From IMG/VR virus record IMGVR_UViG_3300031466_000001, positions 1 through 64,000 of that record: a stretch of 64,000 bases of DNA. One strand, 5' to 3'. Each line of letters begins with the position of its first letter. Position 1 is the first letter of the stretch. Under the pieces are notes generated by a model, which did no database searches, was not told where the DNA came from, and saw only the letters and a program-made list of their open reading frames with translations. This DNA comes from a virus. Taxonomy: Duplodnaviria > Caudoviricetes. Positions 522 through 59,096 of this stretch are shown one piece after another. A program made the translations under genes and the position numbers.

Positions 522-552
522 GAGTTTTATACAACTCTACAATCTTGCTTAA

Positions 553-597
553 TCAAGCAACAAACGGTGGCACCAACGGTTCTTTAATACCTTTCAT
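553..597 (-). CDS. Micro-ORF MKGIKEPLVPPFVA (14 aa)
   Basis: AGGAGG 8 nt before the ATG; the RBS lies inside an inverted repeat (599-617/728-745). Confidence 0.4.
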   Translation of the reverse strand: MKGIKEPLVPPFVA

Positions 598-741
598 GCT
601 GATATCCTCCTAATGTAATTTTTTTCACGTGTTCCGTAATCGACATTTTTTTAGTCGGCGGAACATACAAAATTTCTCAGTTGCTACGACATTGATGTTT
701 AAACGACGTGAACTGCCACCAACATTGTACATTAGTGGATA

Positions 742-765
742 TCAGGTTTGAGTCACTTTTAACAT
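742..765 (-). CDS. Micro-ORF / candidate leader peptide MLKVTQT (7 aa)
   Basis: GGAGGTG 5 nt before the ATG; its TGA stop sits in the helix that pairs with the next RBS. Confidence 0.4.
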   Translation of the reverse strand: MLKVTQT

Positions 766-821
766 TTTTACACCTCCGCAATACCTGAAGCATTAGGTAA
801 TTATTTTGTTTATACACGAAA

Positions 822-831
822 ATAATGTATA
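822..831 (-). promoter_or_regulatory. Early-type promoter motif (TATACATTAT)
   Basis: Same motif as at 58910. Confidence 0.55.
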
Positions 832-886
832 ATTTTATATGCTTAAAATACGATTTTTTCAGTTATTATAATGAATTGTATTTTTC

Positions 887-1237
887 TTACATTAAAGTCT
901 TTCTTTCAATTTGGATATAGATGTCCAAAATTCCTTCTTCCTCATCATCATTTGTCAATTCTAAATTGAAAAGATATAACTTCAAATCATCACTTTCCTT
1001 AAGTACTTCAAAAACATCGTCATCATATACCTCCTCATCGATATTTTGTGCCTCAAAATACGAACGAAGACAGTCAAGGATCAAGGATTCATTGAACTCA
1101 GAAAAGACGAATGTGCTTATTGCAGCGCGATGTTCACTGTCTCTCGTCTTTATAGGAATCCTATCAATAGTTCCAAAACTACTGATAGCTACATGATCAG
1201 TTATTGATACTACCCATATACTTTTATTTTGTGTCAT
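887..1237 (-). CDS. Hypothetical acidic protein (early)
   Basis: 116-aa ORF, AAGGA RBS, early motif at 1270-1279. Confidence 0.8.
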   Translation of the reverse strand: MTQNKSIWVVSITDHVAISSFGTIDRIPIKTRDSEHRAAISTFVFSEFNESLILDCLRSYFEAQNIDEEVYDDDVFEVLKESDDLKLYLFNLELTNDDEEEGILDIYIQIERKTLM

Positions 1238-1269
1238 TTTTTTTCATCCTTTCACTTTGTGCTGCAAAT

Positions 1270-1279
1270 ATAATATATA
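1270..1279 (-). promoter_or_regulatory. Early-type promoter motif TATATATTAT
   Basis: Exact motif upstream of the gene starting at 1237. Confidence 0.6.
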
Positions 1280-1333
1280 ATCGTGATTTACGACCATATT
1301 AAAAAATGAAATATTTTTTATTGTCTGATTTAT

Positions 1334-1345
1334 AACATAAAAATA
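1334..1345 (+). promoter_or_regulatory. Late-type promoter AACA-N6-TA
   Basis: AACA TAAAAA TA; no long ORF downstream. Confidence 0.55.
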
Positions 1346-1581
1346 ATGGGGCAGACAAAGGACCCCAGGAGGCTATAGGTGACAACAGCCGTCGACTTTG
1401 CCCTATAGTATCAAAACTTTTGTCGTTTTCCCAAGAAATACTTGGGACAACGATCCCAAGTTGAGGGAATTTTATTATTAAAATTAATTAAAATAAAAAT
1501 AAAACGGTCAATCTTAGATCTATTAAAATCCCACTAGAAGAAATGGGGTTTTGATAGATTTGAGATTGACCGTTTTTTATT
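1345..1581 (+). ncRNA. Putative late structured RNA with a 9-codon ORF and a long 3-prime hairpin
   Basis: GC-richer than the flanks; helices 1346-1355/1397-1406, 1373-1379/1402-1408 and 1422-1435/1441-1454; 32-bp stem 1501-1532/1545-1576 whose four non-Watson-Crick pairs are all G.U on the + strand. Confidence 0.55.
1379..1408 (+). CDS. Micro-ORF MTTAVDFAL (9 aa)
   Basis: AGGAGG at 1367-1372 and GTG at 1379, 34 nt after the late promoter, matching the spacing of other late genes. Confidence 0.4.
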   Translation: MTTAVDFAL

Positions 1582-1588
1582 TGTGTTT

Positions 1589-1873
1589 TTAGCAGAAATT
1601 TTCATAGTCTATAATTTCTTTAATTAGATTATCTCTTGAGAATATTTGTTCATATAGCGAATTATCCATTATATTTTCCAATGTAGGTATAATGTGGTTG
1701 ATATTTAATATAACAGGAGAACGATATATTCCTTCTCTTAATAAATTATGATCAAATAATTTATGTAGTTTACTAACGAATTCTTCTTTATTTTCTTCTT
1801 TTTCATAAATTGCATATCTACACACATCTTTATACCTGACAGCAGCACCAATAACAAACCTTTTTTTGATCAT
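1589..1873 (-). CDS. Hypothetical protein
   Basis: 94-aa ORF with phage-like composition. Confidence 0.65.
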   Translation of the reverse strand: MIKKRFVIGAAVRYKDVCRYAIYEKEENKEEFVSKLHKLFDHNLLREGIYRSPVILNINHIIPTLENIMDNSLYEQIFSRDNLIKEIIDYENFC

Positions 1874-1973
1874 CTTTTCCCTATATACTATAGACTCAGA
1901 AAATAATTTTAATTTATTTGGACTAGGTACATTTAATAATTCTTCGAGAAAACGTATATATAATTAAACAATT

Positions 1974-2456
1974 TTATATTCCTATACGAATTTTGTTAAT
2001 GATATCTGACAAGTATTCTCCAGGTCCAAGAATTATATGATTAATAAATCTCCCGTCACTCATTAATCCTCTGATAAAAACATCCCAATTTTCATTTAGA
2101 AGTTTGATGAACTTTTCATCACTACCCCTTACACGAAATCTTTCAAGATATTCATCTTTGAGTTCGATTAGCGGGTAGACGAGATATGGTTGAAAACCTT
2201 CTTTGAAAAGAGAATCCAGAACTTCTTTATGCGTTGATACTAGAATGATGTCGGCATTATGTAAATTTGAGGAGATGTGATTAATATAGTTTGCTGGGAA
2301 CTCAGGATTTCGAACTCCCGGAGAAATCCAACTAAATTTACTGCTATCAGAATCCATAATTTTAAGTCCCAAAGATTTCTGGTTCTTAGTCAGAGTGGAT
2401 TTACCTACTCCCGGAAAACCACAGATAATTTTTGCCAGTTCTTTCATTTTTATCAT
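1974..2456 (-). CDS. P-loop NTPase / nucleotide-kinase-like protein
   Basis: N-terminal Walker A IICGFPGVGKS followed by DSDSS. Confidence 0.75.
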   Translation of the reverse strand: MIKMKELAKIICGFPGVGKSTLTKNQKSLGLKIMDSDSSKFSWISPGVRNPEFPANYINHISSNLHNADIILVSTHKEVLDSLFKEGFQPYLVYPLIELKDEYLERFRVRGSDEKFIKLLNENWDVFIRGLMSDGRFINHIILGPGEYLSDIINKIRIGI

Positions 2457-2557
2457 ACTCCGTTTAGATGATAAATTAAATAAATGTAATTTATATAATC
2501 ATTTTTAAAATGAATGATTCGGTATAATTATATAAACAAAGGGTTAAAAATAAGGGG

Positions 2558-3067
2558 GTGGACATATTGGCTTCTTCGTTCAGTCCCACAAAACCATCGT
2601 TTTATATTTTTATTAAAGGGATGCCTGAGATCATTGGGAGGGAATTCCCTAATTTTTCCAATACTATGACGAAAATGATCGAAGCCCTTACTTTTAACGT
2701 GGAATTATTTAAAAAAGATAAAGATGAGACCGAACTATTGATTACAATTTTTGAACTTGAGGGGGAACCCGTTGCTAATTTATTTAACCTTCTTCGGTAT
2801 TTATTCATTATTTCAAACGGAGAAGAAAATTATTTTAGGGATACTATTGAGGAAAAATTTGGTATAGATATGTATTTAGTTAAAACTGTAGATGGAAAAA
2901 TAGAGGATGCTTGCAAATTAAATGGTCTGATTGTTAAATCAATTGATGATGAAGAAATTGAACATTCTGGAATGGCTGGGGTTGTATGTCGTAAAGTTAA
3001 AATGATAACAAGGCATAAGCATAATCTCACCGAAGAAGAATTCGATGAAATAAAAAAATTGATGTGA
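2558..3067 (+). CDS. Hypothetical protein
   Basis: 169-aa ORF with RBS. Confidence 0.75.
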   Translation: MDILASSFSPTKPSFYIFIKGMPEIIGREFPNFSNTMTKMIEALTFNVELFKKDKDETELLITIFELEGEPVANLFNLLRYLFIISNGEENYFRDTIEEKFGIDMYLVKTVDGKIEDACKLNGLIVKSIDDEEIEHSGMAGVVCRKVKMITRHKHNLTEEEFDEIKKLM

Positions 3068-3121
3068 ATCTATGAATTGAAAATCAATATTTTGGCTTTA
3101 CTTTTAATATTTCCGATCACC

Positions 3122-3133
3122 AACAATGTGGTA
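3122..3133 (+). promoter_or_regulatory. Late-type promoter AACA-N6-TA
   Basis: AACA ATGTGG TA, 29 nt before the RNAP beta start. Confidence 0.7.
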
Positions 3134-3161
3134 AGTATACCATATTTGTGAGGTGATCGGA

Positions 3162-6100
3162 ATGATTTTTGTGGATTCTACACCACATCTTAGAGTTTAT
3201 AGACAAAGAGTAATTTTTCCGGTAGATCCTAAAATGCCGAGTAAGGGAAGTATGGCATTTATTATCAATAATGATATTGAGTCCTCTATTGCACTGATTA
3301 ATAGTAATAGAATTTCCCATAATAATCGTTTCCATATATATTTCATGGATAATATCTATGAGGGCAGATTCTTTGGTCGTTATTTTAGGGAAAATAAAAC
3401 CAAAGAACGCTTTGATCTATATGAAAAAGTCCAAGCTAAAGCTGGTAACATTATTTGTCAAAATAGCTTTGTCTCTATCGGTGGTAGAAACTTCTTTTTT
3501 GATCTTATTATGATCCATGAGATTTTCTTTAAAATTGCCGCAAAGAAAGTTGTTCCATATCGTATTAAATCAGAGCAATATATTGATTTTCTTAAAAATA
3601 TTTTTAACGATCAGAGATTCAATCAATACAGTAAAAAAATCATTCTTATTGATGTCAATTCCTGGGTTAAAAATATAAAGAAAGAAATTAAAGGGCGTAA
3701 ATTTTTTGACAATCCAATCTTCTTGTTATATTTTGCAATGACGAAAAACTTTAATAAATTCAAAGAGCTTGGAGATATGAATATTATCTTCTATTCGAAC
3801 GATATCTCCCTTAGATTGAATCCTTCCCTTGCGGATAAAATGTCTTATTCTCTTTTCCGCAATGAAATCTCGAAATTAACTGGTAAAATCACCCTCCCTG
3901 ATGAAAATACGATTGATAAAGAGCTCCAAAAAGATGAAGTCTTTGATGAAGTTATCAAAAACTTTTCTCAACATTACAGATTTACTGGCGATGATGAAGA
4001 ATCGGATAGTGAATTTGAAGAAAAAGTAAGAGATCGCCTCGATGAAATGACCGAAGAAAATAAAGAGCTCGGAAGTCTTGAAGGGAAAGAACTTGAAGAG
4101 CGTTTAACCAATGAACTTTTAGGCGACCAGAAAATTCTCAAAGATTTGAATGAAATTATCACTCAAAATCGTGTAGGTAAAAATATCGCATCTACCAAAC
4201 GAGATGAAGTACTCAGGGAGAAACAAAAAGAGCTCAAATTAGAAAATCAAACTCTCGAAGATCTGCAAAAAATGCTCGATAGATCTGCTACTCTTGAGAG
4301 CTATTCTGTTGAAGATAAAGTAAAAACGACAAATAAAAATGTTACTAAAATCAGATACCCTAATTTTGAAAAATCTTATAATGAAAAACTTTTTAGGCAG
4401 GATATGCTTAATATTCTCTTGTCGTTAAATGATAAATCTATTCCTATCTATATTAGAGATATTAAAGTGGAAGATACATCAGATGAGCTTAACTATAGAG
4501 ACACATATACGGTTCAGCTTGAAGATGCTAACCGTGTTCGACATACATTAAAATTTGACATGCCTAAATTCATTGACGATAAATTCATGTATATTAATGG
4601 CAACAAAAAGCTGATTATCAAGCAGCTTCTTATGAAACCTATCACTAAAACCGGACCTGATGAGGTTCAGATCGTATCTAACTATAATAAGATCTTCATT
4701 CGTAGATACGGACAAAAGACATCTTCTAAATTGGAGAAGTTTAAAAAGGCTATTTCCAAGACAAAAACTTCAGCTAACATTGTAGTTAAAAATGGCAATA
4801 ACCTTAAAGCAAATAGTAAATATCTCACGACCATTGAATATGACGAATTGGCTAAAGATTATACCAGCATTAGAATCAAAAAAACGGAATTTCTGTTCAA
4901 TCAGGATGAAGTTCGAAAAATTCTTGAAGAGAAAAAGATTAAAATTAATGACAATGAGTTGTGCATAGGTTTCATTGATAATAAAACACCGATTATCGTT
5001 AACCTTGATACGCAATTAATCGGTGATATGGATATCATTGATTTTATCCTTTCTATCGAAGCAGGTAAACCTATCAGGGACGTTTATGAAGGGGAAACAA
5101 GCGGTAAGAAATTTGTTTATTCTCGTGCTACTATAATGGCTAAGCAGGTTCCGGTTATTCTTCTTCTCGGTTATCTTGAAGGTCTTTCAACTATCCTGCG
5201 TAAAGCAGAAATTAAACACTATTTCACAGATAAACGTCCTCGTGACCTCACCGATAACCAAGGTGTAGTCCAATTTTCGGATGGTTTTCTGGTTTATGAA
5301 AAGTATCCGTTTGAAAATTCCCTTCTTATGAATGCATTTGCAGATATTCCTACAAAGGGATTCTCATATGCAGATTTTGATAGTAAAGAAGTTTACCTCG
5401 ACATTTTCGATACTATGTTTGGGACCAGAATTATAGGTAATGCATTCGATAACTTCTATGAATTGATGATCGATCCGATTACCAAGGAAGTTCTGGAAGA
5501 TCTCAATCTTCCCACTGATTTCGTCAATGTTGTTTTATATGCAAACTCATTGCTTGCCGACAACTCATATCTTAAAGAAAACAATATGAGTCTTTATCGC
5601 ATAAGATCTAATGAGCTTGTTAATGCATATCTCTATAAGGCAATTGCAACAGCTTATATTCAGTATAGACTGACCGCAAATAATAATAATCCTGTTAAAA
5701 TGTCAGTACCAAGAGATGTTGTAATAAAACAGATTTTGATGGCTCAAACGGTCGAAGATTACAGCACGTTGAATCCCATTGTTGAACTTGAAAAATCTCG
5801 TGCTATCACTCCTAAGGGACCCAGTGGCCTTAACCTGGAACAAGCGTACACACAGGATAAACGTTCTTATGATAGATCTATGCTTGGAATTATCGCAATG
5901 TCTACTTCACCTGACGCTAACGTAGGCGTGGTTAGACAATTGACGCTTGAACCTAGTATCAAGAGTCCGCGGGGCTATATTGAGATTGCAGGAGAAAATC
6001 TCGATCATCTTAAAGATGCAAATCTATTCTCTCCTGCGGAACTCCTCTCTCCTCTTGGCGTAACCCGCGACGACTCTAACCGTACAGCTATGGCTACAAA

Positions 6101-7331
6101 ACAATCAAAACACATTATTCCTGTAGAAAAAGCATCTCCAGTACTTATTTCCAATGGTGCTGAACAAATTATCCCGTATCATCTTTCCAACGATTTTACT
6201 GTTGTTGCGAAAGCAGATGGTGAAGTTGTTGAAGTAAATGAAGAGGCGGGATTAATTATTATAGGATATTATTCTGAAGATAAAAAAGCTGGTTCGAAGA
6301 AGACAAAAGCTGGTATTAGTTCTTATCAATCGATCGATATCAGTCCTCGCATCGTAAAGAACGGTGCGGGTGGCTTCTATCTTTCGAATAAACTTATTTG
6401 TAATCTTAAAGTTGGAGACAAATTTAAGAAAAATGACATTATTGCATCTGATGAAAAATTCTTCACTCGATCTAAAATCGATGGAACCAGATTTAATATT
6501 GGTTCCTTGCAGAAAATAGCATGCATGTCTAGTTACTCGACATATGAAGATTCTACGTTTATCACAAAGAAACTTACTGAGGATATGGCTTCCGAGATAG
6601 TAATGTGTAAAACTATTACTCTGGGTAAGAATGCAAACGTGGACTTTTTGGTCAAACCCGGAGATAATATTACTGTCGGAGACGATCTCATTAGATTTGA
6701 GATCTCTTTCGAAGATGATAGCCTTAATAAATTCCTTGAAACTGTAGGTGAAAATGTTAAAGAGGAAATCAAGTCTCTTGGTAAAACACCCATCAAATCT
6801 AAATATACTGGTGTAATTGAAGACGTTAAAGTGTACTCTACCGTAGAGCTTGATGAGCTTTCTCCATCTCTGAGAAAAATTGTCAGCAATTATTATAAGC
6901 GCATTGATAGAAAGAAAAATATTATCAATAAATATGATAAATCTAATTCTGTATACAAAATGGGAGTTCTTCTCAACGAACCTACAGGTAAGATAGAAAC
7001 TAAAGATGGTAAAGTTAAAGGTAATGAAGTTGGAGAAGGTGTTCTCATTGAAATTTATATCAAATACCGTGACGTAATGGGTATTGGTGACAAACTTGCA
7101 TTCTTTACTGCATTGAAGAGTATTAACGGGGAAATTATTCCTGAAGGGTATGAACCGTTCTCGGAATATAGACCCAATGAGGAAGTATCTTCATTCGTTG
7201 CTCCTGGTGCAGTATTGGCACGTATGACACCATCTATTCTCCTGACTATGTTTGGTAATAAAGTTTTGGTTGAATTGAAACGACATTTGCAGGAAATTTA
7301 TACAGGAAAACCTTGGGAACCTACAAAATAA
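3162..7331 (+). CDS. rpoB: Phage multisubunit RNA polymerase beta subunit, large N-terminal part (virion type, phiKZ gp178-like)
   Basis: Motifs FDMPKF..FMYINGNKK, GPSGL..RSYDRSMLG..SPDANVGVV, RTAMATKQSKH, TYEDST, GIGDKL and PGAVLARM; the C-terminal beta region is absent; about 400-aa N-terminal extension; late promoter. Confidence 0.92.
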   Translation: MIFVDSTPHLRVYRQRVIFPVDPKMPSKGSMAFIINNDIESSIALINSNRISHNNRFHIYFMDNIYEGRFFGRYFRENKTKERFDLYEKVQAKAGNIICQNSFVSIGGRNFFFDLIMIHEIFFKIAAKKVVPYRIKSEQYIDFLKNIFNDQRFNQYSKKIILIDVNSWVKNIKKEIKGRKFFDNPIFLLYFAMTKNFNKFKELGDMNIIFYSNDISLRLNPSLADKMSYSLFRNEISKLTGKITLPDENTIDKELQKDEVFDEVIKNFSQHYRFTGDDEESDSEFEEKVRDRLDEMTEENKELGSLEGKELEERLTNELLGDQKILKDLNEIITQNRVGKNIASTKRDEVLREKQKELKLENQTLEDLQKMLDRSATLESYSVEDKVKTTNKNVTKIRYPNFEKSYNEKLFRQDMLNILLSLNDKSIPIYIRDIKVEDTSDELNYRDTYTVQLEDANRVRHTLKFDMPKFIDDKFMYINGNKKLIIKQLLMKPITKTGPDEVQIVSNYNKIFIRRYGQKTSSKLEKFKKAISKTKTSANIVVKNGNNLKANSKYLTTIEYDELAKDYTSIRIKKTEFLFNQDEVRKILEEKKIKINDNELCIGFIDNKTPIIVNLDTQLIGDMDIIDFILSIEAGKPIRDVYEGETSGKKFVYSRATIMAKQVPVILLLGYLEGLSTILRKAEIKHYFTDKRPRDLTDNQGVVQFSDGFLVYEKYPFENSLLMNAFADIPTKGFSYADFDSKEVYLDIFDTMFGTRIIGNAFDNFYELMIDPITKEVLEDLNLPTDFVNVVLYANSLLADNSYLKENNMSLYRIRSNELVNAYLYKAIATAYIQYRLTANNNNPVKMSVPRDVVIKQILMAQTVEDYSTLNPIVELEKSRAITPKGPSGLNLEQAYTQDKRSYDRSMLGIIAMSTSPDANVGVVRQLTLEPSIKSPRGYIEIAGENLDHLKDANLFSPAELLSPLGVTRDDSNRTAMATKQSKHIIPVEKASPVLISNGAEQIIPYHLSNDFTVVAKADGEVVEVNEEAGLIIIGYYSEDKKAGSKKTKAGISSYQSIDISPRIVKNGAGGFYLSNKLICNLKVGDKFKKNDIIASDEKFFTRSKIDGTRFNIGSLQKIACMSSYSTYEDSTFITKKLTEDMASEIVMCKTITLGKNANVDFLVKPGDNITVGDDLIRFEISFEDDSLNKFLETVGENVKEEIKSLGKTPIKSKYTGVIEDVKVYSTVELDELSPSLRKIVSNYYKRIDRKKNIINKYDKSNSVYKMGVLLNEPTGKIETKDGKVKGNEVGEGVLIEIYIKYRDVMGIGDKLAFFTALKSINGEIIPEGYEPFSEYRPNEEVSSFVAPGAVLARMTPSILLTMFGNKVLVELKRHLQEIYTGKPWEPTK

Positions 7332-7373
7332 AAAAAATAAAGACCTGTACCAAAATGGTACAGGTCTTTATTT
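7331..7373. terminator. Bidirectional intrinsic terminator
   Basis: AAATAAAGACCTGTACCA-AAA-TGGTACAGGTCTTTATTT between convergent genes. Confidence 0.85.
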
Positions 7374-8025
7374 AAATCATTTTAAGGATTTTGAAAATGT
7401 TTTTCCAGGTGTATCTACGAGCAAATCTTCTTGCCTCCACTTCAACAGTCTGATTTTTATAATTGGTGTAATTGGTGGATGAGCTAATATAGTCGTTAAA
7501 TACTTCCTTATTGGTTTCTTTTTGATAGATATGATAAATTTCATGTGCCAATGTTAAAAAAGCTTTAAAAGTAATAAGGAATTTACTATTTTCGGACATC
7601 TGTCTCATCACACCATAATATAATCTTATTAAAGATTGCTCCTGAAAATCAGACGAAAATGTATTGAATTTCGTTACATCTACACGCATTCCCATTGTAA
7701 GGGATACATTTTTATTGAATCTGTGTAAATTGAGAAAAGGGTCGTTGCTCAGATCACTAGGATGTCTGTCTATAATTTGAATTTCGATTGGTTTGATTTT
7801 AAGTTTAGAAAACAGCTCAGATGAATAAAATTTAACAACTTTTTCAACGATTTCTTTCGCTTCTTCGTCGGTTTTCACTACCCCCATGGATCTGATTAAG
7901 AGTTGGAACACCCACACCGGTATCAACACAGGGATAGCGATAATCATGAAGATGAAGAGAAATAAATTTTTGACAATGTTGAAAACAATGCCTGCTTTCT
8001 TTGCGAGCTGTTTCTTTACATTCAT
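7372..8025 (-). CDS. Membrane-anchored zincin-like metallopeptidase domain protein
   Basis: N-terminal hydrophobic segment; HEIYH (HExxH) with downstream EVEAR. Confidence 0.65.
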   Translation of the reverse strand: MNVKKQLAKKAGIVFNIVKNLFLFIFMIIAIPVLIPVWVFQLLIRSMGVVKTDEEAKEIVEKVVKFYSSELFSKLKIKPIEIQIIDRHPSDLSNDPFLNLHRFNKNVSLTMGMRVDVTKFNTFSSDFQEQSLIRLYYGVMRQMSENSKFLITFKAFLTLAHEIYHIYQKETNKEVFNDYISSSTNYTNYKNQTVEVEARRFARRYTWKNIFKILKMI

Positions 8026-8117
8026 TTTTAAAATTCCTCCAGTTTATTTTTTTATCAATCTTGCATTCAATGAAATAATTTATAGATTAATAAATGAAAG
8101 ATACTACTTATTTAAAA

Positions 8118-8151
8118 TCTATATTATTATAAGTAATTTAACAATCAGCTA
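8118..8151 (+). promoter_or_regulatory. Tandem early-like (TCTATATTAT) and late (AACA-N6-TA, 8140-8151) promoter motifs of thyA
   Basis: Both motifs are present upstream of the RBS. Confidence 0.55.
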
Positions 8152-8177
8152 AATATAAAGGTCTGGGAGGAAATAAT

Positions 8178-9110: not shown

Positions 9111-9400
9111 TAAAACGAACAATTAAACCGACTTTACGGCTATGGAAGGTTGGAGATACTTATCGACCAATAGTTAAAATTAACTCTGTTAATCAAAATA
9201 TCCCTACTGAAATTACTGTGAGTGGAAGAAAATACATTTTGGATAGTGTGAAAAAGAAGAAATCTAAGTTAATACAATCGGAAATGGAGAAAGATATCAT
9301 TATATCTTTATTACAAAGAGTGGGGAAATGTCCGAATAGACCTCATGAGATGAAACTTTCCGAATTAAGAAAGATATTAATAGATTTAATATTAAAGTAA
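9107..9400 (+). CDS. Hypothetical protein
   Basis: ATGA overlap with thyA, GAGGTG RBS. Confidence 0.7.
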   Translation: MIKRTIKPTLRLWKVGDTYRPIVKINSVNQNIPTEITVSGRKYILDSVKKKKSKLIQSEMEKDIIISLLQRVGKCPNRPHEMKLSELRKILIDLILK

Positions 9401-9415
9401 AAGGAGGCAAACCAG

Positions 9416-9943: not shown

Positions 9944-9971
9944 AATAAAAATTTTCTAAACTTAAATTATT

Positions 9972-9981
9972 TATATATTAT
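9972..9981 (+). promoter_or_regulatory. Early-type promoter motif TATATATTAT
   Basis: Exact motif upstream of the Lys-rich gene. Confidence 0.6.
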
Positions 9982-49594: not shown

Positions 49595-49909
49595 ATGAAA
49601 ATCTTTAAAATTCTTTATTTGATTCTGGCCGTTGCGGTAATTTCGTCATTCAGTACCGCGGCCGTCGCTGAAGCAGCATCAATAAAAGTCGTATCTGTCA
49701 AAGTCATAAAGAAAAAAAACGACTGGCGTGCTAAACTTACCAAGGAGCAAATTAGAGAAAAGGAAAACTATGCAAAGACAGTAAAAATTTATGTTAAAAA
49801 AGAAATTGATAACGTTGAATATTTGATTACTTATGGTGCTGGTTTCCGATTGGCTAATGGTTATATTGTTACAAATGAACACGTTGTTTCCAATGGGGGG
49901 TACTTATAG
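49595..49909 (+). pseudogene. Truncated secreted trypsin-like serine protease (N-terminal fragment)
   Basis: Signal peptide ending AEA; GAGF...GYIVTNEHVV (catalytic His motif), then a stop; no Asp or Ser motifs. Confidence 0.65.
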
Positions 49910-49941
49910 GGTGGGGGAGCTTTCCTACGAGATATCTCTCT

Positions 49942-50439: not shown

Positions 50440-50489
50440 AAAATAAAGGTGTCGAGGTAAGGTACAAACCTCGACACCTTTATTTTTTT
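50438..50489. terminator. Bidirectional intrinsic terminator
   Basis: AAAAAATAAAGGTGTCGAGG/CCTCGACACCTTTATTTTTT. Confidence 0.85.
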
Positions 50490-52740
50490 AATAAGATATT
50501 TTACGAATATCATCAATCTTGTATCTAAATGGTAAAAGGACCGCAATCATATCATAATTTTCATCAAATTCCACACTATCGTCCACATAAAATTTACTGA
50601 CAGGAATTCTGCTATAGTACTTGATTTTATCCGTCAAGTCGTTATCTTTAAGGAATTTAATAAGACCATCTAAAGATAAATTAACGCCTTTTAATGAATA
50701 TCGTCTGGTAATAAAGTAGTTTATTTCTTTCAGTTCTTTTTCTTTCTCGGTCAGTCCGAAATAAACCATAGGGTTGGGATCATTTTTAAATCTAGCTGGA
50801 AGGGCCGGAATGCTCCTGAACTTTCTCAAAACTTCCTGCTCCATTTCCTTTTTTATTTCAGAATATCTATTGATGAAATTTTCTCTAACCGCTTGATCAT
50901 ATGAATTTAGTGCCTCAATCGATTTTTCGATGTATTTAACCTTTTTATCTACAAGATCTTTATTGTAGTTCTTAAGTTTACCCCTAGTTACGAAATGTAC
51001 ATCTTCGATTTCAGACAGATCATATGGTGTATATAAACTGGTATCCTTTTTCAACAAATTGGGATCTCCGGCTTTAATAATTTCGGCAACGAATTGACTA
51101 CAAAAATATTCATTTTCCCTTGAGGTTTCCTTACCTCTAGCGATATTAAATAAACCGATAAAGCTAAATTTGAGTTTGTTGGCGTTTTTCTTAAATTCTT
51201 CGAGCCTCTTTTTCATCAATCTGTATTTATCGTCATTGACAAACATAACATATAGCGAATAATTAGCATGATCTGATACGTCTTTGAAGATACCATCCCG
51301 GATATCTTCGTTAATAAAAGTCATTTTGTCATCTTTATATTTACGCCCAAAGCTATAAACATCCCTCATACTACTATCGAAACTAATACTTGCATGACTA
51401 TAAGGATCTCCGGTGAAGAATCGTATCAGTTTAGCCATATTAGTGTTGGTATATGTCAGGAGTATGAATACAGGGTGTCTCTTTTCTTTTGAGTCCATTC
51501 TTTCTAATAAAATTGTCCTATATTCTAATGCCATTTCTAAGGTTTTCTCCATGAAAATAGATTCATCGACTTTATAATTTTCTTCTACCATATTCTCTTG
51601 ATGATTGACAACTTGTGGCATCAATTCTGTATCAATAAAAATAACATGTTCTTGAGAATATGGTGATTTAGAATGTTGGAGAGCATAGGCTCTTTCACCA
51701 CGTAGAGTTGTTTCGAAACGTCTAAGAACATCTTTATTATTTTTATACTTATTCACAAATTCTTTTTGCTTTCTTTGATATTCGGAGAGAATTTCTCCGC
51801 CGTTTATAACACCCATAACAAAATCATTATTTGTATTTCTAATAAAATCATTAACAATTTCTTTTGCCGCTCTTTTTCCCTGATTAATTAACATATTCTC
51901 GTTCACAGGTTCTGCATCAGAAATAGCAGATCTACGATCGGTTAAAGTATTTTTAACAATGAAGATAGGTTTGAATTTAGGTTCAGATCCATCTGTTTTT
52001 TCATTCATTTCACTATACTGCTGTTTTAATCTATAAAGGAATTCGAAGAACGGATCATAATTTTTATTAGTTAACTTAATATAGCTGAACTGATTTTGGC
52101 TCATGATCACAGCATCTTTAAGCTGCTCTTTCTTCTTGTCAACATTTTGAATTTTATGATGTTTGTTTGGATTATCTCCACCGTCTTTGATCTCGATTTC
52201 GAGGCCAAGAGACGGAATGAAGAAATCTGGGATATAGAATTTCTTCTCTCCTTCATACTCATAATAATAAGTATGGGGTGAAGGAGACATTATGTCATCG
52301 GAGTCAAAATCCATAAATACGTCAAGAAATTTCAAAAAATCTAATTCATATGAGCCAGTATAGGGAATTTTTTTGCCATCAGACCAAGTATATTCACCGG
52401 AAATAGATCTCTTTGAAAGCATTTCTCGTTGTTTATCAGGATCGCTGAGAAGATGAACCTTACCATATTTACCAATCATACGGTTCTTAAAAATATTCCG
52501 GTATGTTTCTTTACATTTAGGATTTTTACAAAACCGATGGTATTTACCGGTTTTTTCATTCCATTCGGTAGGACGTTTGTCAATTACACATCGTCCTTCG
52601 GTTTTTCCAGTTCTTAGGGCATATTCGAATTGTGCGACAGTGAAATTTTTGGGAATTTTATCTTCATGCTCGTTGCCAATATGATCGATAAGTGATTCGT
52701 AAGAATTATATTTCTCATCACATAATTTACATTTAAACAT
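50488..52740 (-). CDS. Multidomain late protein: C2H2 zinc finger + TnsA-like PD-(D/E)xK nuclease + permuted papain-like amidase
   Basis: CKLC..HIGNEH; SYELDF..YIPDFFI..EIEIKD; YSHASISFD...YFCSQFVA (His before Cys); late promoter at 52768-52779. Confidence 0.75.
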   Translation of the reverse strand: MFKCKLCDEKYNSYESLIDHIGNEHEDKIPKNFTVAQFEYALRTGKTEGRCVIDKRPTEWNEKTGKYHRFCKNPKCKETYRNIFKNRMIGKYGKVHLLSDPDKQREMLSKRSISGEYTWSDGKKIPYTGSYELDFLKFLDVFMDFDSDDIMSPSPHTYYYEYEGEKKFYIPDFFIPSLGLEIEIKDGGDNPNKHHKIQNVDKKKEQLKDAVIMSQNQFSYIKLTNKNYDPFFEFLYRLKQQYSEMNEKTDGSEPKFKPIFIVKNTLTDRRSAISDAEPVNENMLINQGKRAAKEIVNDFIRNTNNDFVMGVINGGEILSEYQRKQKEFVNKYKNNKDVLRRFETTLRGERAYALQHSKSPYSQEHVIFIDTELMPQVVNHQENMVEENYKVDESIFMEKTLEMALEYRTILLERMDSKEKRHPVFILLTYTNTNMAKLIRFFTGDPYSHASISFDSSMRDVYSFGRKYKDDKMTFINEDIRDGIFKDVSDHANYSLYVMFVNDDKYRLMKKRLEEFKKNANKLKFSFIGLFNIARGKETSRENEYFCSQFVAEIIKAGDPNLLKKDTSLYTPYDLSEIEDVHFVTRGKLKNYNKDLVDKKVKYIEKSIEALNSYDQAVRENFINRYSEIKKEMEQEVLRKFRSIPALPARFKNDPNPMVYFGLTEKEKELKEINYFITRRYSLKGVNLSLDGLIKFLKDNDLTDKIKYYSRIPVSKFYVDDSVEFDENYDMIAVLLPFRYKIDDIRKISY

Positions 52741-52767
52741 AGCTATCCTCCGTTCTTACGTTAGTAT

Positions 52768-52779
52768 TAACTAATTGTT
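52768..52779 (-). promoter_or_regulatory. Late-type promoter AACA-N6-TA
   Basis: + strand TA ACTAAT TGTT. Confidence 0.7.
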
Positions 52780-52856
52780 TCTTTGCTTAAATAGTGTATT
52801 TTTGATTATATATTGTTAAAATAACAAATAGATATATCTTTGGGTGGTGATTGTTA

Positions 52857-53432
52857 ATGAGACTTTCTACTACCGAAGCTCATACGTTATATGTGTTGAT
52901 TAAAACGGTAAAAGATTTAATAAATGAAAATGATTTTTCTACACTGAATAGGATTAATGAAAGGTATATCGAATTGATTCCTATGTGGGAATCTTTGCTA
53001 AATAAATATAATTCTAGAATTATGGACTATCTAAATATTATAGGTCATCAATTTATAGAAGATTTTGAAGACGGTTATAGAATTTATCATGATAGAGTCA
53101 TATTGGTAGATGATAATTATATGAGAGATATATCAGAATTCGTAGACGATTTCAAACAGTATTCCTTATTGATCTTAGAAGGATTTAAAGGACTAAAAAA
53201 TAAACTTGACCAATTTATTGATCAATTAAAAGAAATAAATAAATCGATGAAGGAAATCGGTGTTCAGGTAGATTTTGAAATATCTTCTATCATAGAAGGA
53301 AATTTATTTTCTAGTGGGCAAAATGGGTGGTATGATCTATACAAAATGGCTACCTTTATCTTTAGCGAAATTGAAAAAGTGGAAAAAATAACTGAAGAGT
53401 GGAAATGGTCTTATATTCAAAATAATAAATAA
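52857..53432 (+). CDS. Hypothetical protein, paralog A
   Basis: Early-like TATATATTGT at 52807; terminator at 53427-53460; similar to the next gene. Confidence 0.75.
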   Translation: MRLSTTEAHTLYVLIKTVKDLINENDFSTLNRINERYIELIPMWESLLNKYNSRIMDYLNIIGHQFIEDFEDGYRIYHDRVILVDDNYMRDISEFVDDFKQYSLLILEGFKGLKNKLDQFIDQLKEINKSMKEIGVQVDFEISSIIEGNLFSSGQNGWYDLYKMATFIFSEIEKVEKITEEWKWSYIQNNK

Positions 53433-53532
53433 GGAAGAGAAGTACTTCTCTTCCTTATTTATTATTGGAAATTTATATATTTTATTTATATATAATAATT
53501 TTGAATAACGAATAGGAGGATAAATAAAAAAT

Positions 53533-54084
53533 ATGAGTACGAGAAATATTACAACAAAAGAAGCCGGTAAGATCTATAACTTCTTATGCATTACAATTCT
53601 TATCATCGACAATAATGATTTTCGTATTCCCGGAAAGGAAGGTAAAACTAAGACTAAAAGAAACGAATTATTACATAACAAACTCAAAGAACTCAATAAA
53701 TTTTATGTGGATAATTTTAACCATATTGATAAATTTAAAAATGCTCTCAACTTATATATCGGTGGAAGTTACAGTGTATCTGATTTGGAAAAAATGATGT
53801 TGGAGCGAGATGCGACCATTGACTTCATTAATCAGGCACGCTCATATTTCAAGTTATATCTACTAACATTTAAAACATCAGCAGAAAGATTTGGCATGAT
53901 CTTATTTCGTCTCAGACAAATTAATGCAATGATGAGAAAGAATCTGGATGTTGAATTTGATGAAGATGCAATAATAAATGTTGATGAAGATGGAAATATC
54001 AACAACTGGCTCACTATATATAAAAGAATAGAGCCTCTATATAGAGACAGCAATCTAGTCCTGAAGTTCCTTAAGAAAATATGA
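53533..54084 (+). CDS. Hypothetical protein, paralog B
   Basis: AGGAGG RBS; shares TTxEA..Y...IxxNDF and LxxIN.M...VxF..W..Y with paralog A; terminator at 54076-54114. Confidence 0.75.
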   Translation: MSTRNITTKEAGKIYNFLCITILIIDNNDFRIPGKEGKTKTKRNELLHNKLKELNKFYVDNFNHIDKFKNALNLYIGGSYSVSDLEKMMLERDATIDFINQARSYFKLYLLTFKTSAERFGMILFRLRQINAMMRKNLDVEFDEDAIINVDEDGNINNWLTIYKRIEPLYRDSNLVLKFLKKI

Positions 54085-54166
54085 GAGGGTAATAAACCCC
54101 TCTCATATTTTTTTGTTTTTTTTTTCTCTATATACAGGAAACGCTTATATATTTTTTCATTAGGGA

Positions 54167-54178
54167 GACATATTAATA
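54167..54178 (+). promoter_or_regulatory. Late promoter variant GACA-N6-TA
   Basis: 34 nt before the gp25-like start. Confidence 0.55.
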
Positions 54179-54211
54179 AAATTCTATATCTAAGAAACGA
54201 GGTGATGTAGT

Positions 54212-54637
54212 GTGGCTAATGGAATAGGGAGGGAAGTGCTATTCGGTCTGGATAATTTCCATAAACCCAAAATGCTCTCCCTGAAAGATAGCATCGCCCA
54301 GCAATTAATTAATCTGCTCCTTATGAGGCCGGGTAATATTCCTTCTCAGCCTAATTTGGGTATTAACATAAGCAAGTATCTTTATAGTATTCAAGATGGG
54401 TTTGATGCTGAGATAATAAAACAGCAAATATACAGCCAGTGTTCCCAACTCATGCCATATATTTCTCTTGGTGAAGTTATGATTTTTGTAACCACATATA
54501 AAGGATTAGACTTACTTTTGGTTTCTATCCCAATCGTTTTACCTAACGATCAAACAAATCTTCTCATCGGTTTTTCAAATACTCAAAATGATATAAATAT
54601 CGCATATCAATTCGAAGAAATGTCGGCCGCGGTTTAA
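54212..54637 (+). CDS. Baseplate wedge subunit, T4 gp25-like
   Basis: SIAQQLINLLLMRPGNIPSQPNLGINISKYL motif; size. Confidence 0.75.
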   Translation: MANGIGREVLFGLDNFHKPKMLSLKDSIAQQLINLLLMRPGNIPSQPNLGINISKYLYSIQDGFDAEIIKQQIYSQCSQLMPYISLGEVMIFVTTYKGLDLLLVSIPIVLPNDQTNLLIGFSNTQNDINIAYQFEEMSAAV

Positions 54638-54675
54638 TACCCTGAAAAAAAATAAAAGAAGAGAGGTAGAACCAC

Positions 54676-56307
54676 ATGTCCAACGAAAATCTCAATTCTA
54701 ATGGAATGAATTTGAGCGACATTAAAAGACAGGCTATGGAGCAAGAAGCTCAAAGGCAACAAGAAGAGAATAATGAAGCAGTAAACAACTCTAACTCTTC
54801 GCCTAATGAACAAGAAAACGAAAGCTCTGCAGAAAATTCATCTGTTAATTCTAAACCCGTTGATGAAAAAGGGAGTTCTGTTGTTCTCCCCAAAGACGAT
54901 TCGTTTATTATGGCAGTCGATACCAAAAAAGGTTTCCATGTTGTTCATGCTGATCAAGCACAACCCCCAGAATCCCCTTCGGGTTCGGGTCTGATCATCG
55001 AGAATAATAGAGAAGAAAATGCACAACATGGAGCCCTTGCAAATGCTCTCCCTTATGGTGTTATGCCTGAAACTGCTGAAAGTATTGCCAACTATATGAG
55101 GGAAATGGATAAGCAAATTGAAGAAGAACGACAAAAAGCTTTGGCTGCAGGTTACAATGAAGAAGCTGCAGCAAGAGGAGAAAAACAAACTCCCAAAAGA
55201 AGTGACGATGAAACCGATGAAGAGGAAGAATTTGATCAAGAGAAGTATGATAAAGCTATTGTCATTATTGATAAATCTGGAATGGGTCAAGTTATTAACT
55301 TCACCGACGAAGAGCGTGAGAAACTTAAAAAGGTTCGCTCCATAACTCTCAAAGAAGTCGAAGTACAACAACTTGAAACCCTGAAAATCCGTAAAGCTAA
55401 GAAGAATTCGGTTGATAAAATTCTCAATTACACTTCGCACGTACACACTACCCCCATCGTTCTTACGGCATCTGGCTATACTGCTGTGATGAAGGGACTC
55501 TCTACCTATGAGCTTATTTCCCTCATGAGCAGCAGCCAAAATGCTCTCATTGATGCTAGGACCAGATGGAGTTTGTTGCACAGCAAGATTGTCGATAGTA
55601 GCATTGGTAAAATGGATTTCGACGCATTCCTCAAAAATACTGCTGCTGTTGACTATAACACCCTCATTTACGGTGTGCTTGTTGCAACATATCCGGATGA
55701 TGACAAATATCCTCTCAAATGTCCTAAATGTGACAAGAACTTTGAACATCCGTACAGTCCACGCTCTCTCATTAGAGCCGAGAAGATGTCTGACAGGCTG
55801 ATGGAGCTCGTTAAGACCATTGTTGACGGTTCTCATACTGCCCAATCCGCTAAGGAAGTTCATGAGAGCTCTCCGCTCAATACGGTTAAACGTATTCTCC
55901 TACCTGTTAGTGGCTTCTATGTGGATCTCCATGTCCAAAGCGCATACGATCTTATCAATAATTCCATTGAAGCACTTACCAGAAATAATGAAGAGAAATA
56001 TAACCAAGCTGCGGTTCTGGGTACGGCAGTTAAGCAATTTATTACTCCTGACCCGGAAAATCCTGGCGAATGGCTTGGATATGAAGACGCACTTGATATC
56101 ACCAAACTCATTTACAATCTGAGGGATACTGACATTCTCGCATTGACGAAACAAACCGAAATTATTATGGGTGATCTCTCGTTTGATTTCGGTCTGATGG
56201 ATGTTAGATGTCCGCATTGTGCACATCACGAAAAAACCATTCCGATTGACATTGAATCTGTCCTTTTTTACCGGTATCGACAGGCGATGAATACAGAAAT
56301 CGAGTAA
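54676..56307 (+). CDS. Baseplate hub / tail assembly chaperone, T4 gp26-like, with acidic N-terminal extension
   Basis: VMKGLSTYEL, DYNTLIYGVLVATYPDD, CPKC and CPHC zinc knuckles, C-terminal IDIESVLF. Confidence 0.7.
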   Translation: MSNENLNSNGMNLSDIKRQAMEQEAQRQQEENNEAVNNSNSSPNEQENESSAENSSVNSKPVDEKGSSVVLPKDDSFIMAVDTKKGFHVVHADQAQPPESPSGSGLIIENNREENAQHGALANALPYGVMPETAESIANYMREMDKQIEEERQKALAAGYNEEAAARGEKQTPKRSDDETDEEEEFDQEKYDKAIVIIDKSGMGQVINFTDEEREKLKKVRSITLKEVEVQQLETLKIRKAKKNSVDKILNYTSHVHTTPIVLTASGYTAVMKGLSTYELISLMSSSQNALIDARTRWSLLHSKIVDSSIGKMDFDAFLKNTAAVDYNTLIYGVLVATYPDDDKYPLKCPKCDKNFEHPYSPRSLIRAEKMSDRLMELVKTIVDGSHTAQSAKEVHESSPLNTVKRILLPVSGFYVDLHVQSAYDLINNSIEALTRNNEEKYNQAAVLGTAVKQFITPDPENPGEWLGYEDALDITKLIYNLRDTDILALTKQTEIIMGDLSFDFGLMDVRCPHCAHHEKTIPIDIESVLFYRYRQAMNTEIE

Positions 56308-56534
56308 AACAGTACTATCAGTTTTACGACGAATTCCTTGAACTCTTCAAGGGACAAATCAGTCTTGATCAGGTGAAGCATGAGCTTCCCTATAGGGAAG
56401 CTCTCCTTCTCCGAGATGTGAGGATTGAACGTCTCAAAAAGGAGAGAGAGGAATTGGAAAAAGAGCGCAAAGAAGAGGCTGCTAGACAGCAAGCTGAAGC
56501 TGCGCGCAACAAAATTTACATCGCCAGACGGTGA
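56268..56534 (+). CDS. gp51/gpGT-like extension probably reached by -1 frameshift
   Basis: The -1 frame is open over 56256-56534 with no ATG or RBS; encodes YYQFYDEFLELFKGQISLDQVKHELPYREAL plus a charged helix; T6 run at 56264-56269. Confidence 0.6.
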   Translation, partial: LPVSTGDEYRNRVKQYYQFYDEFLELFKGQISLDQVKHELPYREALLLRDVRIERLKKEREELEKERKEEAARQQAEAARNKIYIARR

Positions 56535-56582
56535 GCACCCCTTCCTGTCGATACTGAAAGCTTTTGAAAGGGGTAAAGAGAA

Positions 56583-56882
56583 ATGGCGAGAACCTCTGTT
56601 GATTCTTCCGCAGATAGTACTCATACGCTTATTTCGACCAATATTGTGAGAACTCCGGTTAACCATTTCTGGCTTGTGAAATTATCTGGAGGTTATCTCA
56701 CCTATACTGAAGTAAAAGCAATGGAAGATTACGAGTTCTATGAGATCTTGAATCATTTATTACACTATGGTAAAGAATATATGTCCAAACAAGTAAGACC
56801 CTCCCAACAGGCTTCGATTGAAAATCCGGAGGAGAATGATACATTGGCTTCTTCTCTGGAGGAGGGAGGGCATCATGCTTGA
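56583..56882 (+). CDS. Small protein resembling a gp51/T-type chaperone module
   Basis: AAGGGGT RBS; LVKLSGGYLTYTEVKAMEDYEF. Confidence 0.55.
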   Translation: MARTSVDSSADSTHTLISTNIVRTPVNHFWLVKLSGGYLTYTEVKAMEDYEFYEILNHLLHYGKEYMSKQVRPSQQASIENPEENDTLASSLEEGGHHA

Positions 56883-57267
56883 TGTAATTACACTTTTCAA
56901 TCAGCTAACTCACGATGAGTTAGCTGATTATTCACTATTCGAAAAAGTTTTGGATTCGCACTACGAAAAATTTAAATATTTCTATCGTTTGATGGAAAAT
57001 ATTTCCCTTGAAGGAGTTAATAAGATACGCTGTTCTAATTCTGACAGTCCGGGAGCAATTGAATTTAGAATCGACTTCGAAAGTAATAAAAATCTCAGAG
57101 AATTTAATAAGGAATTTTCTAATATTGCAAAAACCTTTAAAGGTTATCCTGCAAAGTATTTTTCAGTCGATATTAAAGTCGATAAAAAATCCCTCTACAT
57201 CACTATAGAGAACAAAAACATCTGTAGTGAGGAGGATATTTATGAAGATAGATTTAATTCCAACTAA
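56875..57267 (+). CDS. Hypothetical protein
   Basis: GGAGG RBS before the ATG at 56875; overlaps the rpoC-like start. Confidence 0.7.
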   Translation: MLDVITLFNQLTHDELADYSLFEKVLDSHYEKFKYFYRLMENISLEGVNKIRCSNSDSPGAIEFRIDFESNKNLREFNKEFSNIAKTFKGYPAKYFSVDIKVDKKSLYITIENKNICSEEDIYEDRFNSN

Positions 57268-58822
57268 AGAATTTATAGTTATAAACCGCTTAAAAGAAGT
57301 ATCTGATCCCATTCTCTTTGAGAAGGGTAATATTCCAACAGCAAAGGGTTTGTTGTCTACTGAAATTTTCGGTGTATCTGTAAAAGAAAGACAAGAAAAC
57401 TGGGGTTTTATTGACCTCGGTGGTCATTTCCTTCAACCTTTCATCTACAAACTTCTCAGAAGAATGAATAGAAACTTTGAGCATATTGTTCACGGTACGA
57501 AACGCTTCAAAGTCGAAAAGGGTAATCTTGTTGTAGATGAAGAAAATGGAGACACTGGCTTAGAATTTCTCTATAAAGTATGGGATGAATTAAATTTTGA
57601 GAAAAATAACAGTATGATGCGTAATGAGCGTATCGACGTTTTGAACGCATATAAGAAAGACACAATTTTTACGACCACATGTATCGTTATTCCCGCATTT
57701 TATCGGGATGTTAATCTTCAGTCTTCCCAGGTGGGTAAGATCTCCCACCATGAGATCAACGACAAATACTCGAAACTGATTCGCAATGCATCAATTCTCA
57801 AAAACGGAAACAGTTTTGAATTTGAGCTTAATGGTGTAAGAGCAAAAATTCAAATGACCTTAGTAGAAATTTATGATCTCTTGAAATCTAGAATTGAGAA
57901 AAAGCATGGTCTTATAAAGAAATCTCTTCTCGGTAAATCAATTGACTACGGTGCTCGCTCAGTTATTTCTGCTCCTGTATTTAAAGCAGAAAGACCTGAG
58001 GACATGATGGTGGATTTCTACCATTGTGGTATTCCTCTGGCCCAATGTTGTTCCTTGTTCACTCCATTTATTGTGGCATGGGTGAAAAGGTTCTTCCAGC
58101 GGGAGATTGAGAGACTTGGTAATAGATACCCTGTGATGAAGAAAAACGGAGAAATCAAGTATGTGCATTTAAAAGATCCTGAGCTTTATTTCAACGAAGA
58201 ATATATAAAGAAACAAATCGACAAATTTATTTTCAGCTATGGGGACAGATTCGAACCCATCATGCTTCCTGTAGATGATCCTGAGTTCAAAGATGGCGTC
58301 TATATGAGTTTTGCAGGACGTTTCTTCAAACAAGGTGTACCTGAAGAAGAATCACCTCTTGTTGATCGTCCCGCAACATGGTGTGACGTATTGTTCCAAG
58401 CTGCAGTTGATGTTACATCTAATAAAATGGTATATATCACACGATATCCCGTACTCGACTATTTCGGAATGTTCCCTTCGAAAGTTACAGTACTTAGCAC
58501 GCATGATACGGTGCCTATGTATGTTGGTTCTAAACTCTATAAAAATTATCCCAATGTTGATATCAAAATGCCCAAAGATAAAGTATCTGTATATTTCGTC
58601 GATACCATAACAATGTCAAATCTTTTCCTTCATGGTCTCGGTGGGGACTACGATGGGGACCAGGTTACAGTAAAAGGTCTTTATTCGCAGGAAGCTAATA
58701 GAGAGGCTGAAGAGATAATGATGGGGAAACATCACATCTTGAATATCTACGGACAGAATATGCGTAAAACGACCAACGAAGGTATTCAGACGCTTTACAT
58801 GCTTACTAAATTTGAAAAATGA
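57242..58822 (+). CDS. rpoC: Phage RNA polymerase beta-prime subunit, N-terminal part with catalytic motif (virion type, phiKZ gp180-like)
   Basis: GLLSTEIFG, VIPAFYRD, LLGKSIDYGARSVI, ITRYP, GGDYDGDQ; ends before the bridge helix and trigger loop. Confidence 0.92.
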   Translation: MKIDLIPTKEFIVINRLKEVSDPILFEKGNIPTAKGLLSTEIFGVSVKERQENWGFIDLGGHFLQPFIYKLLRRMNRNFEHIVHGTKRFKVEKGNLVVDEENGDTGLEFLYKVWDELNFEKNNSMMRNERIDVLNAYKKDTIFTTTCIVIPAFYRDVNLQSSQVGKISHHEINDKYSKLIRNASILKNGNSFEFELNGVRAKIQMTLVEIYDLLKSRIEKKHGLIKKSLLGKSIDYGARSVISAPVFKAERPEDMMVDFYHCGIPLAQCCSLFTPFIVAWVKRFFQREIERLGNRYPVMKKNGEIKYVHLKDPELYFNEEYIKKQIDKFIFSYGDRFEPIMLPVDDPEFKDGVYMSFAGRFFKQGVPEEESPLVDRPATWCDVLFQAAVDVTSNKMVYITRYPVLDYFGMFPSKVTVLSTHDTVPMYVGSKLYKNYPNVDIKMPKDKVSVYFVDTITMSNLFLHGLGGDYDGDQVTVKGLYSQEANREAEEIMMGKHHILNIYGQNMRKTTNEGIQTLYMLTKFEK

Positions 58823-58835
58823 TAGAACCAAAATA

Positions 58836-58888
58836 AAAAAAGATAATAGACTATATGCATAAAGCATTTATAGTCTATTATCTTTTTT
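58836..58888 (+). terminator. Intrinsic terminator
   Basis: AAAAAAGATAATAGACTAT/ATAGTCTATTATCTTTTTT. Confidence 0.8.
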
Positions 58889-58909
58889 CGTATTTTATTG
58901 GTTATTAAA

Positions 58910-58932
58910 TATACATTATAGACACGAGTATA
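58910..58932 (+). promoter_or_regulatory. Early TATACATTAT plus late-variant GACA-N6-TA motifs
   Basis: 58910-58919 and 58921-58932. Confidence 0.55.
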
Positions 58933-58965
58933 AGAAATAAAAACCAATAACGCGGGAGGTGCCGT

Positions 58966-59040
58966 ATGAGAATTACACTCACGGACAGGATTCTGAGAAG
59001 CGGTCCCTATGAGGGCGAGACCGTTGGTAGACCGGCTTGA
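58966..59040 (+). CDS. Micro-ORF MRITLTDRILRSGPYEGETVGRPA (24 aa) in a structured RNA
   Basis: GGGAGGTG RBS; own promoter motifs and terminator. Confidence 0.55.
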   Translation: MRITLTDRILRSGPYEGETVGRPA

Positions 59041-59057
59041 TTAAAGTTTGGTCGTCG

Positions 59058-59096
59058 AAATATCCCATAGGGGGTCTTCCCCCTATGGGATATTTT
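59058..59096. terminator. Bidirectional intrinsic terminator
   Basis: AAATATCCCATAGGGG/CCCCTATGGGATATTT. Confidence 0.85.

Follow-up and report, generated by a model that had tools for sequence, protein, structure and literature searches.

Very short open reading frames (ORFs) with functions of their own have been described in several systems. Among them are small phage proteins (<50 amino acids) recognized by comparative genomics or Ribo-seq, arrest leaders such as TnaC, cat/cmlA and erm, and leader ORFs of the ermC or mok-hok type that unmask the Shine-Dalgarno (SD) sequence of the next gene. The bar minigenes of phage lambda consist of two codons, act via peptidyl-tRNA drop-off and show no conservation of the peptide. 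Here we analyse a stretch of 64,000 nucleotides (nt) from an AR9-like jumbo phage with 35% GC (positions 1 to 64,000 of the IMG/VR record IMGVR_UViG_3300031466_000001, hereafter the window). A first-pass annotation of this window had, speculatively, grouped three intergenic loci as one layer of gated micropeptides or ribosome- or tRNA-engaging RNAs: locus 1 (545-831), locus 2 (1334-1581) and locus 3 (58908-59096; delimited here as 58888-59095, plus strand). The positions and lengths of their four micro-ORFs (7, 14, 9 and 24 codons) were given correctly, and each ORF has a strong SD sequence. We propose that the three loci are likely three different things, which are alike as short transcription units in gaps between genes. 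Judged by its coding signature, locus 3 is a translated micro-gene under peptide-level selection. Gene callers skip ORFs this small, and hence annotations of jumbo phages miss them.

The micro-gene of locus 3 and its family

The micro-gene comprises 24 codons and a stop codon (58966-59040, plus strand) and has a conserved C-terminal part, S-G-P-Y-E-G-E-T-V-G-R-P. We gathered about 170 loci flanking relatives of the upstream gene for the N-terminal part of RNA polymerase (RNAP) beta-prime, a gene with hundreds of relatives, and obtained two near-complete relatives of the phage in full length, G002 with 227 kb and G003 with 234 kb, the latter complete. Alignment A4 comprises thirteen distinct homologous short ORFs with the core [DE]-G-[DE]-T-[IVM]-G, from uncultured giant phages whose RNAP subunit is 36-80% identical to that of the window. 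When 1.53 Mb were searched in six frames, the core motif was found in nine distinct frames, eight of them of 24-32 codons and one inside a frame of 539 codons; the reversed-sequence control gave none. Exactly one copy is present in the complete genome G003 (control hits: 0), and four cultured AR9-like phages contain no match to the pattern. A heptapeptide pattern run over all of IMG/VR gave 17 matches. Two of these are this phage, and the 15 others, in unrelated contigs, provide a baseline for chance. They yielded no new members: 12 lie inside long ORFs, and the three short frames were excluded by reading (L249) or by GC content and context (L245, L250).

The pattern of codon variation in the family points to translation. 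Summed over the six motif codons in 11 members, the entropy amounts to 2.70, 2.87 and 10.06 bits at codon positions one, two and three, respectively. Compared with L216, the closest relative, whose RNAP subunit is 80% identical, the window shows nine synonymous changes, two non-synonymous changes and one identical codon over the 12 C-terminal codons; promoter, SD sequence, terminator and convergent neighbour are retained in L216. The variation of third positions together with nine synonymous versus two non-synonymous changes argues that the ORF of locus 3 is a translated micro-gene. As read from the alignment, the residues under selection are those of the core [DE]-G-[DE]-T-[IVM]-G together with a few next to it, and RNA structure is not under selection. 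The N-terminal part varies freely in sequence and length, members span 9-30 codons, and the minimal ones have only 9-11 codons (L209, L206, L072). Nine of the 11 members examined have a strong SD sequence at proper spacing. Accessibility of the ribosome binding site (RBS) has a median of 0.42 in the family compared to 0.40 in ordinary genes, and 'gating' of the RBS was therefore dropped as a trait of this family. Six micro-peptides scanned against Pfam and PHROG matched no family. Of the overlooked micropeptide layer that had been proposed for AR9-like jumbo phages, this conserved micro-gene is a part that is borne out, while a joint layer of all three loci is not supported. The coding signature of the micro-gene is unambiguous at a length of only 9-30 codons, and its conservation extends over a deep, uncultured clade of AR9-like phages.

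The expression signals predicted at locus 3 are complete for a monocistronic unit. A candidate bipartite early-type promoter (58888-58926, plus strand) is made of TCGTATTTTA (58888-58897) and TATACATTAT (58910-58919) with a predicted start at G 58926, and this architecture recurs at the syntenic site of relatives. The SD sequence GGGAGGTG (58954-58961, plus strand) lies 4 nt before the ATG. Downstream follows a bidirectional terminator (59058-59095) with a 17-bp perfect stem, common to the micro-gene and the convergent late operon, which folds with -31.5 kcal/mol on the plus and -29.8 kcal/mol on the minus strand. In such a unit, the early-type phage promoter would give rise to a monocistronic RNA of about 170 nt, the strong SD sequence would drive translation of the 24-residue peptide and the bidirectional terminator would close the unit. 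The peptide itself is probably the active product, and among the roles considered we tentatively favour a ligand or inhibitor that is short, acts in trans and is produced early in infection. Such a role would place it among the shortest conserved phage effectors.

The position of the motif has to be considered here. It lies three residues before the stop codon in 8 of the 13 members, with the N-terminus free to vary, and the minimal members have the length at which conserved bacterial ORFs (9-11 codons) are usually leader or arrest peptides. Furthermore, the unit is constantly found tail-to-tail with a conserved late gene. The micro-ORF could hence encode a nascent peptide that acts in cis by stalling the ribosome near the stop codon. 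What it controls would then be the bidirectional terminator downstream, the fate of the RNA that encodes it or antisense read-through towards the late structural operon. We hold this cis mechanism to be rather unlikely, because there is no downstream gene in the same orientation and the distance from stop codon to terminator varies across members from about 11 to 70 nt, so that in most of them a stalled ribosome would hardly occlude the hairpin directly. The distance between motif and stop codon also departs from three residues in L218, L224 and L060 (4, 6 and 10 residues), and one further member carries a degenerate version of the motif with unchanged length. Still less probable is an arrest peptide without downstream cistron whose G-E-T-V/I-G core acts inside its own ribosome at or near termination; such a device could set when antisense read-through reaches the late virion operon, or it could tag or capture host ribosomes at an early stage of infection. 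An action in cis would make it a new arrest-type peptide.

The unit is framed by two genes. At its left border lies the terminator hairpin (58836-58888, plus strand) of the upstream gene for the RNAP beta-prime N-part (57242-58822), a 20-bp perfect inverted repeat with a folding energy of -24.9 kcal/mol (z -9.3). On the other side, a conserved gene for a protein of about 150 amino acids (59098-59553, minus strand) converges on the micro-gene in a tail-to-tail arrangement. This gene closes an operon that also encodes a virion structural protein, and in which the ORF at 60434-61642 matches phrog_3013. Homologues of the 150-amino-acid gene are arranged tail-to-tail with a micro-ORF in at least six loci (alignment A3), and a PDB profile search with its product gave no match. 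In a near-identical strain (L006, L057), the four loop bases of the bidirectional terminator (59075-59078 of the window) are reverse-complemented (TCTT versus AAGA) on an unaltered stem, which resembles a loop flip through hairpin-mediated inversion. In Bacillus phage Goe21 (L213, 3524-3703), an unannotated hydrophobic ORF of about 59 codons with an SD sequence lies between rpoC1 and the convergent gene, at the site where the uncultured clade has its micro-ORF. In L058, L062, L148 and L149 the match to the RNAP beta-prime N-part ends at residue ~470 and is followed by a structured RNA and an endonuclease-like ORF, an arrangement that looks like an intron with a homing endonuclease.

Promoters, folding and frequency of short units

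The early promoter consensus of AR9 is AAATATATATTAT-N6-G (PMC5312081). In the window, exact TATATATTAT cores occur seven times, and 39 cores are present when up to one mismatch is allowed, versus 19 expected. The predicted promoters of locus 3 and locus 1 match the AAATATATATTAT core at 12 and 11 of 13 positions, respectively, both with N6-G. The candidate promoter of locus 1 (815-853, minus strand) belongs to the same bipartite class, with TCGTATTTTA at 853-844, TATACATTAT at 831-822 and a predicted start at G 815. The loci had been described as sharing no obvious primary sequence, which is wrong for these two: both have exactly TCGTATTTTA, 12 nt, TATACATTAT, N6 and G, as well as a similar A-rich leader, and the exact 10-mers TCGTATTTTA and TATACATTAT occur in the window only here. 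Promoter subclass and leader would thus speak for one functional class of structurally gated micropeptide units or ribosome- or tRNA-engaging RNAs, forming a hidden regulatory layer. We consider such a class highly improbable. In G002 the upstream CGTATTTT element accompanies 13 to 15 of 53 cores (about a quarter), and 10 of 13 promoters with this element drive ordinary genes. The shared sequence therefore defines a promoter subclass and is not a signature of micro-ORF units. Locus 2 differs from both, since it has no AAATATATATTAT-type early motif. It carries AACA-N6-TA at 1334-1345, in line with the AR9-type late pattern AACA-N6-TA/G, but with six specified bases this motif is expected by chance about once per 1.5 kb per strand.

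The other traits by which the loci had been united hold only in part. Locally higher GC content is seen at locus 3 (0.45; 0.53 in its ORF) and in the core of locus 2 (0.47), but not at locus 1 (0.355 versus 0.354 for the window). Folding of the whole loci gives z values of -4.1, -10 and -4.7 against shuffled sequences, which is mainly due to terminators, as these reach between -6 and -11 alone. The low value persists in the central domain of locus 1 (z -4.56; none of 200 shuffles folds as well) and less so in the core of locus 2 (-2.9), while the RNA of locus 3 without its terminator is not unusually structured (-0.43). Dense pairing over the RBS or start had been noted as well. At locus 1 a helix indeed covers the second SD sequence, but the accessibilities of the micro-ORF RBSs (0.21-0.62) fall among those of 36 ordinary genes in the window, which span 0.09-0.82. 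Searches of the window with Rfam (gathering and E-value thresholds) and ARAGORN returned sub-threshold hairpin matches only, with no match at gathering level and no tRNA or tmRNA.

For the frequency of such units, we counted 6-mer SD sequences followed by a start codon and an ORF of 2-30 codons within intergenic segments, using dinucleotide shuffles as control. The window contains five units versus 0.62 expected, a number reached in none of 200 shuffles, and this excess would favour a common class. However, four of the five are the very ORFs of the first-pass annotation, so that the test is post hoc, run on the same loci that prompted the idea. The counts are five versus 2.3 expected in G002 and three versus 2.9 in G003. 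These show no enrichment, which makes the excess in the window a local and post hoc one and no property of the clade. Further points in favour of one class are a second tiny ORF overlapping the SD sequence of the conserved micro-ORF in L206 and L209, and other stand-alone small units in G002. Against it stands that no peptide or RNA motif is common to the three loci, and that they differ in promoter type and in depth of conservation. The proposal of three different things is therefore the one we retain. It also calls for caution in grouping small intergenic units by their looks, given that promoters, SD sequences and hairpins recur for ordinary reasons.

Further short units were seen in other phages of the set. 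At about 129980-130150 of G002 (L018) lies a stand-alone small unit in which some 150 nt, devoid of a real ORF, separate a bipartite early promoter from a strong terminator. G003 has an ORF-free gap of 281 nt (55344-55624, L231) just upstream of its RNAP beta gene, with AGGAGG and an ORF of 18 codons. In L227/L228, downstream of the 150-amino-acid gene, GGGAGG precedes a two-codon ORF (ATG AAT TAA) adjoining a terminator, the only bar-like minigene that we encountered.

Loci 1 and 2 in the early region

Locus 1 contains two micro-ORFs on the minus strand, separated by a structured domain. Micro-ORF 1 has seven codons and a UGA stop (765-742), with GGAGGTG 7 nt upstream, and micro-ORF 2 has 14 codons and a stop (597-553). 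The domain between them (598-746, minus strand) is closed by a Watson-Crick helix of 16 bp (8+8), whose 5' arm (744-728) starts at the UGA that ends micro-ORF 1 and whose 3' arm (617-600) spans AGGAGG, the SD sequence of micro-ORF 2. The unpaired probability of the RBS of micro-ORF 2 is 0.21 in the full transcript. Locus 1 is the only one of the three with the geometry of leader-peptide coupling, in which the stop codon of the first ORF lies at the start of one arm of a helix that sequesters the second SD sequence. This geometry supports a translational relay as the most likely role of locus 1: on reaching the end of the 7-codon ORF, a ribosome would disrupt the helix masking the SD sequence of the 14-codon ORF. 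The locus lies upstream of an orphan gene for 68 amino acids that has its own promoter-like core. Behind this gene, a terminator hairpin (196-240) carries GAGGAGG in its loop, and the GGGAGG at about 133-138 is an orphan, as no start codon follows. The first 100 nt of the window are an AT-only tandem repeat (ATAATA-type units), perhaps part of a repeat region or an end of the genome.

Locus 2 has a GC-richer core with three hairpins (1345-1470, plus strand; GC 0.47, z -2.9 on the plus and -3.5 on the minus strand) and ends in a very long hairpin terminator (1497-1582, plus strand), which also terminates the minus-strand gene at 1589-1873. This hairpin folds with -46.3 kcal/mol on the plus versus -34.7 kcal/mol on the minus strand, and the advantage of 11.6 kcal/mol argues for a plus-strand transcript ending there. 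Our best guess is a non-coding RNA of about 235 nt from the plus strand. The ORFs within the core, one of nine codons with a GTG start (1379-1408, plus strand) and one of ten codons with an ATG start (1346-1378), are probably incidental.

Both loci sit in a hypervariable early region. Collinearity of G003 with the window starts at position 3162, and the first 3.1 kb, including loci 1 and 2, have no counterpart there; a syntenic site is absent in G002 as well. The loci were found only in strains in which the flanking gene for 116 amino acids, located between them, is at least 98.9% identical in nucleotide sequence. All relatives found for this gene are from near-identical strains, and the same holds for the 68-amino-acid gene. 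Neither megablast nor blastn detected the loci in phage records, and the exact 24-nt cores of loci 1 and 2 had no match in IMG/VR. Among the strain contigs L024-L051, the gene before locus 2, upstream of the 116-amino-acid gene, is swapped (products of 78 to 227 amino acids), and locus 2, the 116-amino-acid gene, locus 1 and the 68-amino-acid gene stay together as a block. The RNAP beta-like gene of the window is 38% identical in protein sequence to those of Bacillus phages PBS1 and Goe21, and the window contains a stretch identical to a 29-kb fragment in IMG/VR.

This restricted distribution, with orphan flanking genes and no matches in phage records or IMG/VR, would also be expected if loci 1 and 2 were non-functional or structural spacers, that is decayed early genes or foreign fragments that keep an SD sequence and a start codon beside the promoters and terminators of their neighbours. 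The double use of the long hairpin at locus 2 fits such an origin as well. We nevertheless doubt it. The helix of locus 1 brings a stop codon and an SD sequence into register in a domain of exceptional stability for its composition (z -4.56), the hairpin of locus 2 is optimised for the plus strand, and its core has no variant site in 16 strain variants, unlike the AT-rich flanks with about 10 variant sites. Remnants of a longer reading frame were not seen; a decayed-gene origin of locus 1 was rejected in particular, as three-frame translation reveals no long interrupted frame. A relay at locus 1 and a small RNA at locus 2 are hence what we prefer.

Several observations count against parts of the explanation given here. 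The promoters of loci 1 and 3 carry a T-to-C change at one common core position, and AR9 virion RNAP reportedly tolerates single departures from the consensus poorly (PMC5312081). The promoter call at locus 2 is weak, its motif being too short to count as evidence. Two members of the micro-gene family, L140 and L136, lack an SD sequence, and the smallest peptides, with 9-11 residues (L209, L206, L072), have a length at which a stable product acting in trans is less expected; the preferred distance of the motif from the stop codon also fits a nascent-peptide mechanism. Finally, about 28 strain contigs show hardly any variation in loci 1 and 2, too little to assess covariation or coding constraint.

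Comparison with described systems

The micro-gene of locus 3 comes closest to the small phage proteins. It has its own SD sequence and start codon, conserved amino acids and free third positions; like them it is missed by standard gene callers and found among accessory genes. A difference is size, since 9-30 codons are at or below the usual limit, and further differences are the monocistronic organization with a dedicated promoter and terminator and the lack of a Pfam or PHROG match. Type I toxins and arbitrium-type signals are less similar: the peptides of the family are short, mostly acidic and without a hydrophobic stretch (A4), and the micro-gene is flanked by an RNAP subunit gene and structural genes, unlike the adjacent receptor gene of arbitrium. 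With the arrest leaders (TnaC, cat/cmlA, erm), locus 3 has in common a very short ORF, conservation near the C-terminus, a mostly fixed distance to the stop codon and a variable N-terminus. It differs in that no gene follows in cis and that the distance to the terminator is unconstrained, and stalling is only a candidate mechanism.

Locus 1 resembles systems of coupling by SD unmasking, such as the ermC leader and the mok-hok type, because a tiny upstream ORF ends in a helix that sequesters the next SD sequence. The ORF that would be unmasked has, however, only 14 codons, is not hydrophobic and is conserved within one phage species only. The early promoters of AR9 resemble the candidate promoters of loci 1 and 3 in the N6-G start and, apart from deviations such as the T-to-C change, in the core, and the two loci add to this a CGTATTTT element 12 nt upstream that is not part of the AR9 consensus as quoted. 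The bar minigenes of lambda, which had been put forward as precedent, are phage-borne minigenes with an SD sequence as well. The likeness ends there: the ORFs described here have 7-24 codons instead of two, and at locus 3 it is the peptide that appears to be under selection.

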